Shown here: positions 1-63,734 of the stretch, one piece after another
Position numbering within the stretch: the first letter of the stretch is position 1
How the letters are laid out: each line of letters begins with the position of its first letter
DNA from: a phage
DNA: 64,000 nt
NCBI GenBank assembly: GCA_018509705.1
Contig: GCA_018509705.1_3630.1
Direction: 5' to 3' (one strand)
The notes under the pieces: model-generated
What the model was told of the DNA's origin: nothing
Seen by the model: only the letters and a program-made list of their open reading frames with translations
Databases searched by the model: none
Position numbers and translations under genes: made by a program

Positions 1-165
1 ATCTCTCTTAACCATATTTTTGTTTCTACGAGATCCACCCTTCCTGTAGTACATATAGCATTCCTTGCATGTACCTGAGTATCCATCCTTGCTCTTAGAT
101 GATAAAAAGAAATCATCAATAGGTAGAACTCTTTGGCAATCCATACATTTTTTAGTATTACACAT
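1..165 (-). CDS. Cys-rich zinc-ribbon protein, N-terminal part; gene runs off the window start; possible homing-endonuclease-like ORF
   Basis: Minus-strand ATG at 165 after GGGAGGG RBS; open to position 1; CxxC...CKEC pattern like the N-terminus of the HNH protein at 63156-63734. Confidence 0.3.
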   Translation of the reverse strand, partial: MCNTKKCMDCQRVLPIDDFFLSSKSKDGYSGTCKECYMYYRKGGSRRNKNMVKRD

Positions 166-380
166 TCACCCTCCCGTTTCGAATCGCTTGATTCTACGTC
201 TTTCGACTAGTCGTTGAACGTTCATCCTCTCGGATGCTTCGCTGCGGATTATCTAAATTAACACACTGTTACCATACCTTCGATCTCTCTTCGAAGCCTC
301 TATCATGTTACCATGACAGGTTGGTGGTGTCAATAATAAAGATTTCCCCGCAATTAGGGAGGTTTTACGAGAGCTACAAA

Positions 381-809
381 TTAACCCTCATCGAAGCAAA
401 CCATGGTGTACTCAAGCCCTTGATGGTTAAGCTTATCTTGTACATACTCCATGTGACAGTATTTTACAACAGCTCCCTTTTTGCTTCTATCCCACTTGCC
501 AGTGTTCGGATCAAACCGTGGAAAAATGAACTTATGATCCTTCTCTCTGAACTTTGGCTTAATGTTTTCAGGCAGATCACTGTAAATAGCTACTGCTTTA
601 GGCCATAGTCCACCCTCACCTTCCAACTGTGGGGTTGTTCTTCGGAACATAACCACAGAGCTGTGGGGGTCATCAATAATTTTAAGTGGCATCAACTGCA
701 AGAGGAACGACTTGCCAGACCCTGCGGCACCGCCGATTACCAAAATATCTGCATCGTTTTCTAGGATCATCTTCTGCTTTTCAGAACACGGTCCGTAAAT
801 CTTAGACAT
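381..809 (-). CDS. P-loop ATPase fragment resembling a terminase large subunit N-terminal domain, ending right after a Walker-B-like FDEG
   Basis: Walker A GGAAGSGKS preceded by Q-rich motif, C-terminus MVCFDEG then stop; only 142 aa. Confidence 0.4.
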   Translation of the reverse strand: MSKIYGPCSEKQKMILENDADILVIGGAAGSGKSFLLQLMPLKIIDDPHSSVVMFRRTTPQLEGEGGLWPKAVAIYSDLPENIKPKFREKDHKFIFPRFDPNTGKWDRSKKGAVVKYCHMEYVQDKLNHQGLEYTMVCFDEG

Positions 810-2157: not shown

Positions 2158-2256
2158 GGTGCTAGGTGATGGAATCGAACCACCTATGTATTCAACGACT
2201 ACCTCGTCTATTTTCAGGATTAAAAATCCTCGCCCTTGCCAAAGGGCTTACCTAGC
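2158..2256 (-). tRNA. Aberrant tRNA-like element (good acceptor/D/T arms, irregular anticodon arm, over-long variable region); possible pseudo-tRNA
   Basis: Acceptor GCTAGGT/ACCTAGC pair, T-arm GGTGGTTCGATTCCATC, but anticodon stem does not close canonically and about 30 nt lie between anticodon arm and T-arm. Confidence 0.25.
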
Positions 2257-25986: not shown

Positions 25987-26265
25987 ATGAGCTGTGAAAA
26001 ATCTTTTTTCTTTATTATTTACGGTAAAGATAACTGCCCACATTGTGTCAGAGCAAAAGAATTTGCAATCAGCAAAGGTCTGCCTTTTGTATATAAGACA
26101 CTTGGCGAGGGATACACAAAAGAAGAGCTTATTGAGAAGTGTAGCCCAATCGTGCCCAGAACGTTGCCGCAGATCTTCTTAGAAAGCAATCTTGAAAGTG
26201 TCCATATAGGCGGTGCCGACGATTTCATCTCTTTTGTTAAGAATGGTTTTGGAGAGAAAAAGTGA
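25987..26265 (+). CDS. glutaredoxin/NrdH-like redoxin
   Basis: CPHC active site near N-terminus; 92 aa. Confidence 0.7.
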   Translation: MSCEKSFFFIIYGKDNCPHCVRAKEFAISKGLPFVYKTLGEGYTKEELIEKCSPIVPRTLPQIFLESNLESVHIGGADDFISFVKNGFGEKK

Positions 26266-27113
26266 AAGTTGTAAAACGGGACGGTAGAGAAGAGTTCTAT
26301 AACGGAATTAAGGTGATCAAGGCGGCAGAGTCCGCCTTACTTGAGTCTGGACATACTGAAGAAGAAGCTTACCGGATCGCCTGCGCGGTTAATGAAGTTG
26401 TTGCTAACAATCTACCAACCGACCAGTGCACGATCTCTGTAAAAAATATCCATATCCTTGTTGAAGACGCTCTTATGGATATGGGTTTAAAATGTGCAGC
26501 CAGAGAATACATCCAGTATAGGCAGACAAGAGATAATAACAGAGAGGCAGGTGGAAAACTGCTTGCAGATATTAGTGGCTTCTTGGATCGCACTTGTGAT
26601 GAATTTACAAAAGAAAACGCAAATAAGCCTACCAATCATGTACACACTCATCGTGACCTGCTTGCAGGCATTCTTAGCAAACACCTTGCATCAACACAGA
26701 TCCTGCCAGACCGTGTCTCTGAAGAGCACAATAAAGGCTTCATCCATGTGCATGATCTTGACTACTTGATCAGTCCGTTAACAAACTGTTGTTTGGTAAA
26801 TTATCCAGATATGCTGGAAAACGGATTCAACATTGGTAACGCTCATGTCAGTAAGCCGAAGTCAATAGGGGTTGCAACAACAATCCTTAGCCAAATCTCT
26901 AGTGCGGTAGCTAGTGCTCAATATGGTGGTCAGACTATGAGCCATATTGATCATTATCTGGCACAGTATGCTGAAGCAACCTATGAGAAGAACCTTAAAT
27001 TTTGCCAGGAACATTGGTTGCCAGATGCTGAGACTGTTGCAATGCAAATGACAGATAAAGACGTATTTGACAGCATGCAGACTTTGCTCTATCAAATCAA
27101 TACGTTAACTTCT
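26262..27113 (+). CDS. nrdD: anaerobic ribonucleotide reductase NrdD, exon 1 (3' boundary approximate)
   Basis: GTG start overlapping grx stop; ATP-cone N-terminus; frame stops at 27123 inside presumed intron. Confidence 0.7.
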
Positions 27114-27370
27114 GTCAACGGTTAACAAACTGGCCGTTTTAAAACTCTGCTAACCTCAGTATGAGGGGTCAGCTGATCGCTGGCTAACGGGGAACGCTAA
27201 GGCGAAAGCTATGCCAATCCCGTGACTAGCTTCACAAGGAGTGAGGCGGTTGTAACGACTAACCTTTTGGTGTAGGGATTATGGAAGATTCCGAAACGCA
27301 GAGGTCTGATTAAGAATCACACGGTGTGATTTCAGGCAAGAGATAGTCTGGCCTTGTGGAAACATAAGGG
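27114..27370 (+). other. putative ORF-less group I intron in nrdD (boundaries within about 10 nt)
   Basis: About 250 nt GC-richer structured spacer between two in-frame NrdD segments; exon 2 frame opens after stop at 27365-27367. Confidence 0.5.
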
Positions 27371-27679
27371 TGGGGACCGCAAACCCCTTTTATCACATTA
27401 AGTTTAGGTCTGGACACCTCAGTATTTGGTAGAATGATTACCAAAAACTACTTGAAAGTCCACAAAATGGGTCTTGGTGAAGAACGTATCACACCTGTGT
27501 TCCCTAAAGTGCTGTTCTTCCTAGAAGAGGGTGTCAACATGAACCCTGGAGATCCTAACTATGATTTGAAACGATTAGCTTTGGAATGCTCTGCAGAGCG
27601 GATTTATCCTGACTTTGTTTCTGTTCCACTAAATCGTAAAGTGACAGGATCGACAGATGGCAAAGTAACGAGCATGGGT
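27371..27679 (+). CDS. nrdD: NrdD exon 2
   Basis: Encodes WGPQTPFITLSLGLDTS...KVTSMG; ends on T before intron. Confidence 0.6.
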
Positions 27680-28441
27680 AAACTATAACTGCTCATGTAA
27701 AATCTATCTAAACGGGGAAACTCCAGAACGGACAATCCCGTGCTAAACGTAACAGAACTCCTGACCAAGAGGAGTCCTGAAATGAGAAAACAAATTCGTG
27801 ATTTTGAAGGTTATGAAATTGACGAGATGGGCAATGTTTATTGCACCCGCTACGAAAATGAAAGAATTATTCATTCGTGGGAAGAGATAAACACAGGTTA
27901 CCGTCTTGTTAGGATACGCAAGAACAAAAAGACTGTTTGCCTAAGGGTTCACAGACTTGTTGCTGAATCGTTCTTACCAAATCCAGACAATTTACCCTAT
28001 GTTAAGCACAAAGGGGACAACAGGAAAGATAACAGTGTATACAACCTTGAGTGGGGAGCTTGCCCAGACAATACGCAAGAAGGATACAACAACAACTGTT
28101 ATGCTTTTTACACAAAATGCCACGGTGTGAAAGCCACCAACAAATTAACTGGTGAGGTTTTCCACTTTAAAAGTCTGAGATGTTGTGCTGATGTTTTAGG
28201 AGTGGATAGAAAAAGAATATCTGCTATCCTGAAACGTGGTGCGCCTAATAACTATGATTACGAGTTCTGTTACGAAATGCCTAACGACTAACCGTGATGA
28301 ATGTAGCGGTGTAGGGTGTAAGCCGATGACACTCGAAATGGTAGACACACTAAGTGTGAAGATATAGTCTGATCTGCATGGGAACATGCAGCAGCACGTA
28401 AAGGTGCGGGGGTGGACTTGCGAACCACCCTGAACATAATG
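27680..28441 (+). mobile_element. putative group I intron in nrdD carrying an HNH homing endonuclease
   Basis: Splitting ...TSMG | CRSFL...; upstream exon ends in T, intron ends in G (28441). Confidence 0.6.
27740..28291 (+). CDS. HNH homing endonuclease (intron-encoded)
   Basis: IDEMGNVYCTRYE ... HRLVAESF ... VKHKGDNRKDNSVYNLEWG typical of intron HNH endonucleases. Confidence 0.65.
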   Translation: MLNVTELLTKRSPEMRKQIRDFEGYEIDEMGNVYCTRYENERIIHSWEEINTGYRLVRIRKNKKTVCLRVHRLVAESFLPNPDNLPYVKHKGDNRKDNSVYNLEWGACPDNTQEGYNNNCYAFYTKCHGVKATNKLTGEVFHFKSLRCCADVLGVDRKRISAILKRGAPNNYDYEFCYEMPND

Positions 28442-29404
28442 TGTAGAAGTTTCTTATCGAAATATAGCGACCCTGTAACAGGCGAGGAGAAATACCTTGG
28501 CAGATTTAACTTAGGCGTTGTTAGCCTTAACCTGCCAATGATTGCGGCAAAAGCTAAAACGGAAGGTGTTGATTTCTTTGCAGTTCTTGACGAATACCTG
28601 GATCTTGCATACGAGGCTCACCTTGTAAGGGTTAACCGTCTAAAAGGAACAAAGGCAGGGCAGAACCCTATCATGTGGTGTGAAGGCGCTCTTGCTCGCC
28701 TGGATCCTGAAGAGAGTATTGATAAACTCTTCTATGACGGGTACGCTTCCATCAGTATTGGGTATATTGGTGTGTATGAAACCTGTCAGATTTTGGGCAG
28801 GGAGGGTGACAAGGCTTTAGCTCTTGGAATACTACAGCACATGAGAGATGCTTGTGAGCGATACAAGAAGGAAAGTAGACTAGCGTTTAGCTTGTACGGC
28901 ACTCCTTCTGAGAGTCTATGCTATAAAGCTGCAACCTGTCTGGATCGTGAATATCCTGAAGTGTTGAAGCACGAGCATGAATATCTCACCAACAGTTTCC
29001 ATCAGCCAGTATGGATCAATAGCTCTCCTTTTGATAAGTGGGAGTATGAAGAAGGTTTTGCTATGATATCCTCTGGTGGCAACATCGGATACGTAGAGAC
29101 ACCAAATCTGAAAAACAACTTAGATGCTTTGGAAGCTCTTGTTGATTTCGGATATAAACACATTATGTATTTTGGTATCAACCAGCCTGTGGATAAATGT
29201 CTTAAGTGTGGTTTCTCTGGTGAGTTCAGTGCAACAGCTAAAGGGTTCTGCTGCCCTGCGTGCGGATGCCACGATGAACAATATATCTCAGTGATCCGAA
29301 GAGTGTCTGGATACCTTTCCAGTCCTAACTCCCGTCCTTACAATAAAGGTAAGCAAGCGGAAGTTATAGAACGGGTTAAGCACTACGGAAGTTGTGGTTG
29401 CTGA
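28442..29404 (+). CDS. nrdD: NrdD exon 3 (glycyl-radical domain and C-terminal zinc site)
   Basis: RRVSGYLSSP glycyl-radical motif; CLKCG...CPACGC zinc cluster. Confidence 0.75.
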   Translation, partial: CRSFLSKYSDPVTGEEKYLGRFNLGVVSLNLPMIAAKAKTEGVDFFAVLDEYLDLAYEAHLVRVNRLKGTKAGQNPIMWCEGALARLDPEESIDKLFYDGYASISIGYIGVYETCQILGREGDKALALGILQHMRDACERYKKESRLAFSLYGTPSESLCYKAATCLDREYPEVLKHEHEYLTNSFHQPVWINSSPFDKWEYEEGFAMISSGGNIGYVETPNLKNNLDALEALVDFGYKHIMYFGINQPVDKCLKCGFSGEFSATAKGFCCPACGCHDEQYISVIRRVSGYLSSPNSRPYNKGKQAEVIERVKHYGSCGC

Positions 29405-29470: not shown

Positions 29471-30631
29471 GTGAGAAAACTTACAACCGAAGATTTTATA
29501 GAGGGGGCGAAAGCAGTTCATGGTGATAAATATGATTATTCCAAAGTCAAATATGTGGGTGCACACACCAAGATTGTAATTATATGCCCTGAGCATGGAG
29601 AATTTAAGAAAACTCTTGGAGATCACCTCCGTAAAAAACAGGGTTGCCCAAAATGTCAGATTGAAGCAGAAAGAGCGGCTTCTGCTGAAAAATTTAAAGC
29701 GGAGGCCGAGGCTAAGTATAATTATAAATATGATTACTCTAAGGTAGAGTATGTAAATGCTAAAACTAAAGTTGTGATTGTTTGTCCTGTTCACGGCGAG
29801 TTTGAGCAAAAGCCTGATAACCATCTCCGCGAGGGGGGTTGCCGTAAGTGTGGAGGAACTGAGAGAAAGACTACTGAAGAGTGGATCGCTGAGGCAAAAG
29901 CGCTTCATGGCGATAAGTATGATTACTCTCTTGTAAATTATAAAACCGGTAATGATAAAGTGGAGATAATCTGTAATACATGTGGTGCTCACTTCCCACA
30001 AAGACCTCATGACCATGCACCAAGTGGAAAAGGTTGCCCCGAGTGCGGGAAGAAGAAGGTGGCCGAGGTTAGTAGGAAGACGCAGAGAAAGAAAGCATCT
30101 GAGGTAGCTAAAAGGTTTGAGGCAAGAGCCAGAGCTATCCATAAAGATAAATACGATTATTCCAGGGTGGAATATGTTAATAGGGAGACAGAGGTCACTA
30201 TCATCTGTCCGATTCACGGGGAGTTCACACAAAAACCGTTTGTCCACATCAACCAAAAAGCTGGCTGTCAAAAATGTGCTAAAGTCGGCTTCTTATCTCA
30301 TGAACATGGTAGCCTTTATATCATGGTTGACGATCTGGAAGTACCAACTATGATGAAAATTGGTGTGAGTGTCCGGGTAGATGAACGAAGAAAAGATGTG
30401 TTAAAAAGAGCTAAAAAAGCTGGTGCTAGATTCTCTGATCTACATGTTATAAAAACTTGGGAAGGAACAACAGACGACATGCAAACTTTAGAAAAAGCTA
30501 TGCACCAAGCCTTGAGCCAATACAAAATCAACTTCACAGAGAAGTTTGATGGCTGTCGAGAGTTCTTCTACTACAGACCGGAGGTGTTCAGCATAGTGGA
30601 AGCAGCGTATAAAGAGATCTGCGGTAAATGA
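29471..30631 (+). CDS. free-standing homing-endonuclease-like protein: four zinc-ribbon repeats plus C-terminal T5orf172/GIY-YIG-like domain
   Basis: Four repeats of HGDKYDYS-x-V-x-Y...CPxHGEF...GCxxC; C-terminal LYIMVDD...KIGVSVR. Confidence 0.55.
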   Translation: MRKLTTEDFIEGAKAVHGDKYDYSKVKYVGAHTKIVIICPEHGEFKKTLGDHLRKKQGCPKCQIEAERAASAEKFKAEAEAKYNYKYDYSKVEYVNAKTKVVIVCPVHGEFEQKPDNHLREGGCRKCGGTERKTTEEWIAEAKALHGDKYDYSLVNYKTGNDKVEIICNTCGAHFPQRPHDHAPSGKGCPECGKKKVAEVSRKTQRKKASEVAKRFEARARAIHKDKYDYSRVEYVNRETEVTIICPIHGEFTQKPFVHINQKAGCQKCAKVGFLSHEHGSLYIMVDDLEVPTMMKIGVSVRVDERRKDVLKRAKKAGARFSDLHVIKTWEGTTDDMQTLEKAMHQALSQYKINFTEKFDGCREFFYYRPEVFSIVEAAYKEICGK

Positions 30632-63155: not shown

Positions 63156-63734
63156 TTAAAAGTATTCATAGAAGTATCCATCTGGAGCTGGAATTTTTTC
63201 ATGAATGTAGTAACCAATATATATTCCAGTTTCTCTGCTACAAGAGTTGTGGGATACCCATTCTTTAAGAACGTTACCATTCATGTCCAACCTCCTTACA
63301 TTTTTGCACCGTCTACCGCTGGTGCTTCTATGTAACAGAATATCCTCTGTCTGCTTGTCTTTATTTTCTCCCCAAGTCGTTAAACGGATATTATCAAAAG
63401 AGTACCCTTTGAAATCATCTATCCTGTCGCAAGAAGGCTTTTTCCTTTTGTCGTATCCGCTGGCTACCCACTGATCATACAACTCTTTGTAACCGTTTAG
63501 GTATAGCCACTCCTTAAACTCTTTTTTGGTGTAAGTCGGAGGAGGGTGACCTCTTTGCTTGCTGTTGCACTTTTGAGCCTTGTACAACACACGTATTACA
63601 CCTTTTTCTGAAGAGTCTTTAGCAAATTGGTCAGCCTCCCTGCTGGCCTTCTTGCAACACTCTTTGCACGTTGATTTGTTACTGGTGTAGAAGTCGGAGG
63701 CCTCCTTGTCCTCTCCACAACGTTTGCATTTCAT
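63156..63734 (-). CDS. HNH homing endonuclease with N-terminal zinc ribbon
   Basis: MKCKRCG...CKECC then SCDRIDDFKGYSFDNIRLTTWGEN HNH core. Confidence 0.6.
   Translation of the reverse strand: MKCKRCGEDKEASDFYTSNKSTCKECCKKASREADQFAKDSSEKGVIRVLYKAQKCNSKQRGHPPPTYTKKEFKEWLYLNGYKELYDQWVASGYDKRKKPSCDRIDDFKGYSFDNIRLTTWGENKDKQTEDILLHRSTSGRRCKNVRRLDMNGNVLKEWVSHNSCSRETGIYIGYYIHEKIPAPDGYFYEYF

Follow-up and report, generated by a model that had tools for sequence, protein, structure and literature searches.

The first 809 positions of the window (the whole 64,000-nucleotide stretch of phage DNA that was analysed; contig GCA_018509705.1_3630.1 of GenBank assembly GCA_018509705.1) raise a simple question. 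An open reading frame (ORF) for an ATPase that resembles the large terminase subunit (TerL, encoded by terL) ends directly after its Walker B motif, and a cysteine-rich ORF on the same strand follows it and runs off the edge of the window. Is the first ORF a complete gene or only the beginning of one? Comparison with related phage sequences makes it very probable that the ORF is exon 1 of terL, and that the gene is cut by a mobile group I intron with an endonuclease gene inside it.

Positions 1-1500 of the window are 98-99.6% identical to about 120 records of Vequintavirus (rV5-like) myophages of E. coli. The closest relative, HdK5, shows 6 mismatches to the window in 1500 nucleotides (nt). 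By this identity, the source is a Vequintavirus (rV5-like) myophage of E. coli, and the window begins inside terL, which is transcribed from the minus strand. The P-loop ORF of the original prediction is present at 381-809 (minus strand). It encodes 142 amino acids, with a Walker A motif (GGAAGSGKS) and a C-terminus of ...MVCFDEG followed by TAA. The product matches positions 2-104 of 215 in the Pfam Terminase_6N profile, and carries the PHROGs label 'terminase large subunit' (E 5e-76). The two genes upstream of it are o-spanin and i-spanin (PHROGs). The interruption lies three bases past the Asp-Glu of Walker B (a motif placed by Pfam profile coordinates and by the motif itself), at the boundary between Gly142 and Thr143 of TerL.

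Alignment to the intact terminase genes of relatives places the break after Gly142, with a join that matches to the base. We set the 5′ splice site from helix P1, after GAGGGU, and the 3′ splice site from the reading frame and the terminal G, after ...AAACG. The final base of exon 1 is the U of GGU at window position 384, and the intron is 883 nt long, including the TAA at 383-381. The predicted spliced junction reads GATGAGGGT-ACACAG. This sequence, with 200 nt from each exon, was searched in the phage collection and gave a single ungapped match (up to 99.5%) in A51.2, AlexBoehm, Murica and many other phages. In A51.2, a continuous TerL of 515 amino acids reads ...MVCFDEGTQFEWEQ... / ...MVCFDEGTQFEWEQIDYLMSRL... 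across the join point. It includes Terminase_6N (E 6e-20, positions 2-211 of 215) and Terminase_6C (E 5e-6); a sequence search of full-length TerL against the PDB gave no match. The downstream exons of relatives match Terminase_6N at positions 111-162 and then Terminase_6C. Thus, they resume where exon 1 stops. The phage nomo shows the order of the pieces, with the 142-residue ORF followed by a 196-residue 'recombinase endonuclease' and a 349-residue 'terminase large subunit'. In HdK5, downstream terL is split again by a second insertion, which encodes a 228-residue HNH_3 protein. Past the window start (about 500 nt), we expect the rest of the endonuclease ORF, ...CACAUUCAUAAGAUAUAGUCU, P9, P9.1 and ...AAACG, and then ACACA(G/A)TTCGAATGGGAG.

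The original prediction had considered that the ATPase might be a stand-alone small P-loop protein, in which case the cysteine-rich ORF would be an unrelated, free-standing nuclease gene. Gene callers do report the 142-residue ORF with its TAA end, 745 blocks of the collection list exactly this protein, and in several GenBank records it stands as a gene of its own, labelled 'hypothetical protein' or 'terminase large subunit'. However, the same 142 codons run without a stop into the 515-residue TerL in intronless sister phages, the ORF spans only half of the Terminase_6N profile, and the apparent 215-nt spacer behind it is a covarying ribozyme core (see below). We assign a stand-alone ATPase a negligible probability. 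The 142 residues are the N-terminus of TerL in intron-free relatives, and by the test that the original prediction set for itself this alternative is refuted in favour of a split terL.

A stretch of 215 nt without a long ORF does separate the two ORFs, at 380-166. Its location was correctly given; it is not spacer but the core of a ribozyme that starts at position 383. A scan with intron models, run in E-value mode, returned a group I match: Rfam Intron_gpI (RF00028) aligns over its full model length to window positions 393..92 (minus strand), with 42.5 bits and E 1e-8. In HdK5, where the intron is complete (L002, 5383..4501), the match reaches 47.0 bits (E 4e-10), and the alignment puts all of the 591-nt ORF inside P8. 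The helices comprise P1 and P3 to P9.1, with P7.1 and P7.2 in addition and no P2. The conserved P3-P8 core that characterizes group I introns, including the P3/P7 pseudoknot, is present and backed by covariation, and the core strings AAUUGCGGG, AAUCCGCAGC, UUCAACGACUA and AAGAUAUAGUCU were all found. P7.1 and P7.2, located between P7 and the 3′ strand of P3, are a hallmark of subgroup IA (PMC3984707). The Rfam matches and this covarying core identify the interruption as a group I ribozyme, of the IA type. The 3′ strand of P8, J8/7, the 3′ strand of P7, P9, P9.1 and the terminal G lie outside the window and were read in HdK5. An intein and a group II intron were considered and rejected, given the in-frame stop right after the break and the fit of the sequence to the group I model. 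Coordinates are given in Table 1.

Table 1. Elements of the interrupted terL gene at the start of the window, with the basis of each assignment (CM, covariance model).
Feature	Coordinates	Strand	Basis
terL exon 1	384..809	-	142 codons; Walker A GGAAGSGKS and Walker B MVCFDE; end set by intronless alleles
Group I intron, IA type, 5′ 383 nt of 883	1..383	-	Rfam Intron_gpI and covariation
TAA in frame, intron nt 1-3	381..383	-	Sequence
Internal guide sequence GCUCUC; P1 partner is exon end GAGGGU, with U.G wobble at 5′ splice site	369..374	-	Sequence and CM alignment
P3 5′ strand, CCUCCC	357..362	-	CM alignment and covariation
P4-P5 domain; P4 is UGCGGG/UCCGCA; long P5 extension with two hairpins, 318-301 and 296-278	243..352	-	Covariation
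P6/P6a hairpin, GCG..CAUCC-GAGA-GGAUG..CGU	218..242	-	Covariation
P7 5′ strand, GACUA; partner UAGUC past the ORF, outside window	208..212	-	CM alignment and covariation
P7.1 (GUC-GAAA-GAC) and P7.2 (GAAUC-AAGC-GAUUC)	181..207	-	Covariation; compensatory changes in relatives
GGGAGG, both P3 3′ strand and Shine-Dalgarno sequence of endonuclease gene	170..175	-	Sequence and covariation
P8 5′ strand GUGAAUGUG, with AUG inside at 165-163; partner CACAUUCAU outside window	161..169	-	CM alignment
Endonuclease ORF, first 55 of 196 codons; first Cys4 zinc-ribbon-like repeat	1..165	-	Sequence; full protein from relatives

Covariation was assessed in six introns: the window-type allele of rV5-like phages, the ORF-less allele of magaca, and those of the Avunavirus Av-05, a phiKZ-like Pseudomonas phage, nrdE of Bacillus phage TimeGriffin and Vibrio phage D148. 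The five related introns were found by BLAST, and that of Av-05 was usable only in its 5′ part, up to P9. Across the six, 94.6% of the cells that should pair in the drawn structure do so, versus 35-41% when the partners are slid, a measure somewhat favoured by the drawing of the counted structure from one of the aligned sequences. Compensatory changes are found at 33 of 69 pairs (4-9 when slid), and the pairs are distributed over P3, P4, P5, P6, P7, P7.1, P7.2, P8, P9 and P9.1. None of 500 shuffles reached the observed values of pairing and compensation. P7 is without variation across the aligned introns, as expected of the guanosine-binding helix. In the hairpin at 318-301, a compensatory change (C-G versus U-A) separates the allele that contains the endonuclease gene from the ORF-less allele. 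The U.G wobble at the 5′ splice site (GAGGGU/UAA..., where the slash marks the site) and the terminal G (omega-G) of ...AACG/ occur in all ten intron copies examined. The Rfam matches, the covariation, the exact join in intronless phages and the remaining exons in relatives together bear out the original prediction that terL is split by an intron with a homing endonuclease.

Several points, in addition to the bias in the pairing measure, must be set against this. The Rfam scores of the window and of HdK5 are below the gathering score of 50 and so narrowly miss the family cut-off, and Rfam run at gathering thresholds on the window and its relatives reported no intron. The slight shortfall can be attributed to the 591-nt insert in P8, the length of the P5 extension and the lack of P2. 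The later terL exons and the last 500 nt of the intron lie beyond the window and are predicted from relatives that are not 100% identical to it; nor is any of the eight loci retrieved with the 142-residue protein. We found no RNA data on this intron; the terL intron of phage CB7, for which splicing has been shown, is a different one, located 6 nt upstream and with an HNH_3 endonuclease.

A score under the gathering threshold could also mean that the ribozyme has decayed and that terL is split but unspliced, with two or three polypeptides that assemble after translation. The nrdA/mobE locus of Aeromonas phage Aeh1 is reportedly of this kind, a gene that is split and not spliced. Annotators start exon 2 at an in-frame ATG, and the CB7 study includes one HNH-associated insertion without splicing (PMC7344957). 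Yet every core helix is intact and covarying, and the U.G pair and the terminal G are kept in all ten copies examined. The break falls inside the ATPase fold, in the interval between Walker B and the C-motif, and translation from the annotated exon-2 ATG loses 24 conserved residues (TQFEWEQIDYLMSRLRSQSKYPSR); a second annotated start is located further in. The conservation of the ORF-less 319-nt form of the intron, 98-99% identical across 23 records, is suggestive of selection for splicing. We therefore consider an unspliced, split terL very improbable, and retain a group I intron that is predicted to splice as the explanation of the break.

The cysteine-rich ORF has the features originally described. 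It starts with an ATG at 165 (minus strand) behind GGGAGG at 175-170, reads MCNTKKCMDCQ...CKEC..., and runs off the window. The full ORF in relatives is 591 nt long, lies within the P8 loop and encodes a protein of 196 amino acids, with two CxxC...CxxC repeats at the N-terminus and Pfam PF02945 (Endonuclease_7; E 2e-21) at residues 110-192, in the C-terminal part. In the PDB, it matches two beta-beta-alpha-metal enzymes best, Hpy99I (E 1e-5) and T4 endonuclease VII (E 6e-4). By these matches, the intron protein is a member of the Endonuclease VII branch of the His-Me/HNH superfamily, and a putative homing endonuclease. Thus, the endonuclease is carried by the intron as anticipated, but it belongs to the Endonuclease VII branch, and its gene lies inside the ribozyme (in P8) and not beside it. 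The predicted likeness to the ORF at 63156 is also partly upheld: 13 of 31 residues are identical over CxxC..DF..CKEC, although the match is weak (BLASTP E 0.005), and no Pfam hit, HNH or other, was obtained on 63156-63734, the supposed HNH endonuclease. Better support comes from the PHROGs family that both ORFs match, phrog_1035 'endonuclease VII' (E 2e-32 and 4e-28).

The final three sense codons of the ORF form the 3′ strand of P8, and its UAG lies within AAGAUAUAGUCU (J8/7-P7′). In the T4 td/I-TevI system, the folded intron prevents translation of the ORF, whose start is buried in the ribozyme structure. By analogy, we infer that the folded terL intron would block translation of the endonuclease, and that the ORF would be readable only from unfolded precursor. 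Consensus sites for an internal promoter or terminator for the endonuclease were no commoner than in shuffled sequence; one sigma-70-like site (10/12, at 333-305 on the minus strand) lies within the P5 extension and is given no weight.

The intron site occurs in three states, which we counted by an intron search and a junction search of public phage records. The 883-nt intron with the endonuclease ORF, the type found in the window, is present in 30 records; an ORF-less intron of 316-319 nt is present in 23 (e.g., V5/rV5 and LL12); and the site is empty in about 65 (e.g., A51.2, AlexBoehm and Murica). All three share one exact base of terL, and constitute a presence/absence polymorphism. The ORF-less intron has a plain hairpin as its P8, UAAGCG-GUUGUUGU-CGCUUA. 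Metagenome contigs with the identical 142-residue product include both intron-bearing forms, and one of these contigs also has a second terL intron.

The sequence at the junction differs with the state of the site. It is GGT/ACA in 10 of 10 intron-bearing alleles examined and GG(C/A)ACG in 6 of 6 empty alleles. In this small sample, the differences, all synonymous, track the presence of the intron without exception. The U at position -1 (window 384) is needed for the P1 wobble. The putative cleavage target of the endonuclease is ...GATGAGGGCACGCAG..., and the intronless target sequence is GAGGGCACGCAG, versus GAGGGTACACAG for the spliced-type sequence. The flank differences may reflect co-conversion, the splicing requirement for U at -1, or targets that resist the endonuclease.

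We weighed whether the endonuclease has a role other than homing, either as a degenerate passenger or as a protein recruited elsewhere (e.g., as an aid in DNA packaging). Terminase-stimulating HNH proteins are known (Kala et al., 2014, as cited in PMC7344957), the ORF is located within terL, and the intron also persists without it. Against such a role, the alleles show a classic signature of homing: the insertion is present or absent at one exact base, and the flanks differ synonymously. About 75% of related phages lack the ORF and are viable, so that it is dispensable for packaging. The ORF is also intact in the copies examined, which include eight independent contigs. A non-homing role appears unlikely, and we prefer a predicted homing endonuclease. 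A more specific scenario can be offered tentatively: the three states and the flank changes could be the marks of a homing cycle still under way in wild Vequintavirus populations, in which the empty alleles resist cleavage and folding gates translation of the endonuclease. We regard this as possible but doubtful. If true, the terL site would be a handy place to follow, in nature, how intron, endonuclease and host gene co-evolve; as all the components are known, only the population detail would be new.

The proposed mechanism is as follows. The primary transcript would fold and form P1 between the guide GCUCUC and the end of exon 1, GAGGGU. The first attack, by a guanosine cofactor, would fall after the U of GAGGGU, and the freed exon would then attack after the terminal G of ...AAACG. 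Joining of GGU to ACA would restore the 515-residue TerL, with its ATPase and RNaseH-like nuclease domains. On unspliced mRNA, translation would stop at the TAA formed by the first three intron bases. During co-infection with intronless relatives, the endonuclease would cut their terL, into which the intron would be copied by repair.

Related introns were encountered in several other places. The phiKZ-like Pseudomonas phage fnug has an ORF-less group I intron (L007, 1905-2241) between homologues of PHIKZ071 and PHIKZ073. Over the 3′ two-thirds of the terL intron the two are 73% identical, with P7, J8/7 and P9 the same in both. Thus, the intron lineage is common to phage families and hosts that are unrelated. 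A second terL group I intron follows ...GATI in HdK5 (L002, 4176..3190, minus strand) and in some other relatives; it encodes an ORF with HNH_3 and helix-turn-helix domains and has Rfam scores of 34.9 and 24.3 bits. Av-05 (NC_025830) has a copy of the first intron at the same site, 74% identical. Its TerL exon 1 also includes an intein-like insertion inside the Walker A loop (GGAAG/CLSKDHEV...VVVTGN/SGKS, with slashes at the insertion boundaries). In the GenBank record of Av-05, the exon-2 segment is inverted, with breakpoints in palindromic P9 hairpins (CTGCATG-N-CATGCAG) that are common to both terL introns. The inversion is either real or an assembly artefact.

Within the window, nrdD, the gene for the anaerobic ribonucleotide reductase, is also split, into three pieces (26262-27125, 27434-27688 and 28412-29404) that span 26262-29404 on the plus strand and match positions 1-154, 180-263 and 263-562 of the Pfam NRDD profile. 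The first apparent group I intron (about 27123-27430) is ORF-less and starts GGT/TAACAA. The second (about 27687-28441) contains a 183-residue I-HmuI/NUMOD-like ORF at 27740-28291. The matches to Rfam Intron_gpI, 29.2 bits (E 0.0017) and 35.3 bits (E 2.5e-5), are under the gathering score. This arrangement recalls the T4 nrdD (sunY) intron. Just 3′ of nrdD, at 29471-30631 (plus strand), an ORF of 386 residues combines repeats of a DUF723/treble-clef zinc-finger module with a T5orf172/MUG113 (GIY-YIG-like) domain at the C-terminus. From its domains, it is probably a free-standing endonuclease of the homing type.

Other observations concern the tRNA genes and the records of relatives. Seven tRNA genes (Pro, Met, Thr, Ser, Tyr, Arg) are clustered at 1913-2725. 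One gene of this cluster, 99 nt long at 2158-2256 (minus strand), is reported by ARAGORN as 'tRNA-???' with a four-base anticodon, atcc; it scores only 35.5 bits with the Rfam tRNA model and is annotated 'tRNA-OTHER' in relatives. Eighteen records named as Campylobacter phages (host C. jejuni; MG065644-MG065690) are 98-99% identical to E. coli Vequintavirus in the terL region, a similarity that suggests mislabelled or contaminant isolates.

The splitting of terL by an intron is already known in this phage group. The rV5 paper, in a section on 'Introns in terminase', describes terL in three segments, one with a homing endonuclease; D. Shub is acknowledged there for the definition of the intron (Kropinski et al., 2013, PMC3606486). 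The LL12 announcement reports that terL and the DNA polymerase gene are disrupted by introns (PMC6658697). In BASEL records such as that of DrSchubert (MZ501060), the terL coding sequence is joined from two pieces and a 'putative homing endonuclease' is nested in it; the authors set intron boundaries by comparative alignment. The DrSchubert terL coordinates agree with an 883-nt intron flanked by exons of 426 and 1122 nt. We found no paper with a secondary structure, the P8 placement of the ORF or an allele survey for this terL intron, and the published text on rV5/V5 and LL12 gives no splice-site detail; we consider these to be routine elaborations of the known case. The practical consequence is one of annotation. 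The 142-residue 'terminase' and the 'recombination endonuclease VII' should become one joined terL coding sequence and an intron-encoded homing endonuclease, and many public records still give them as separate genes or hypothetical proteins. The edge of a window may also hide the remainder of a split gene. The locus is a clean, already-reported example of mobile introns at the catalytic centre of a phage packaging ATPase, and opens no new question.

Comparison with known systems places the intron precisely. It is shared with rV5/V5, LL12 and DrSchubert, which belong to the same genus and have the same gene interrupted at the same base by an intron core that is 98-99% identical. DrSchubert carries the identical 883-nt, endonuclease-containing form. 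In contrast, rV5/V5 and LL12 carry the 319-nt ORF-less form at this site, and the homing endonuclease of rV5 is that of the second, downstream intron. The Pectobacterium phages CB7 and phiTE (Certrevirus) are of the same subfamily, Vequintavirinae, and also have a nuclease ORF in the Walker B region of terL; the CB7 intron splices, as shown by reverse transcription PCR (PMC7344957). However, their insertion, as read in phiTE, lies at VD/EG and not DEG/T, the ribozyme is different, and the ORF is outside P8. The CB7/phiTE endonuclease, being of the HNH_3 type, resembles the ORF of the second rV5 intron.

The IA2 introns of T4 td, nrdB and nrdD (sunY), which encode I-TevI, I-TevII and I-TevIII, are similarly phage IA introns in conserved genes of DNA metabolism or packaging. 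In stretches, the terL intron is 72-82% identical at the nucleotide level to the cores of the T4 nrdB and td introns. It also shares with the T4 introns an in-frame stop just past the 5′ splice site and an endonuclease ORF whose start is enclosed in ribozyme structure. They differ in host gene, in the location of the ORF (P8 here, P6 or P9.1 in T4) and in the type of endonuclease (Endonuclease VII here, GIY-YIG or classical HNH in T4). Terminases are listed among the typical targets of phage introns (PMC3984707). A group I intron interrupts terL of Lactobacillus phage LL-H (Mikkonen & Alatossava, 1995, as cited in PMC3606486), and that in terL of Bacillus phage SIOphi has been shown experimentally to self-splice (PMC11878797). 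The Vequintavirus intron resembles these two in its choice of the large-terminase gene, and differs in that the phages are unrelated and the insertion sites are others.

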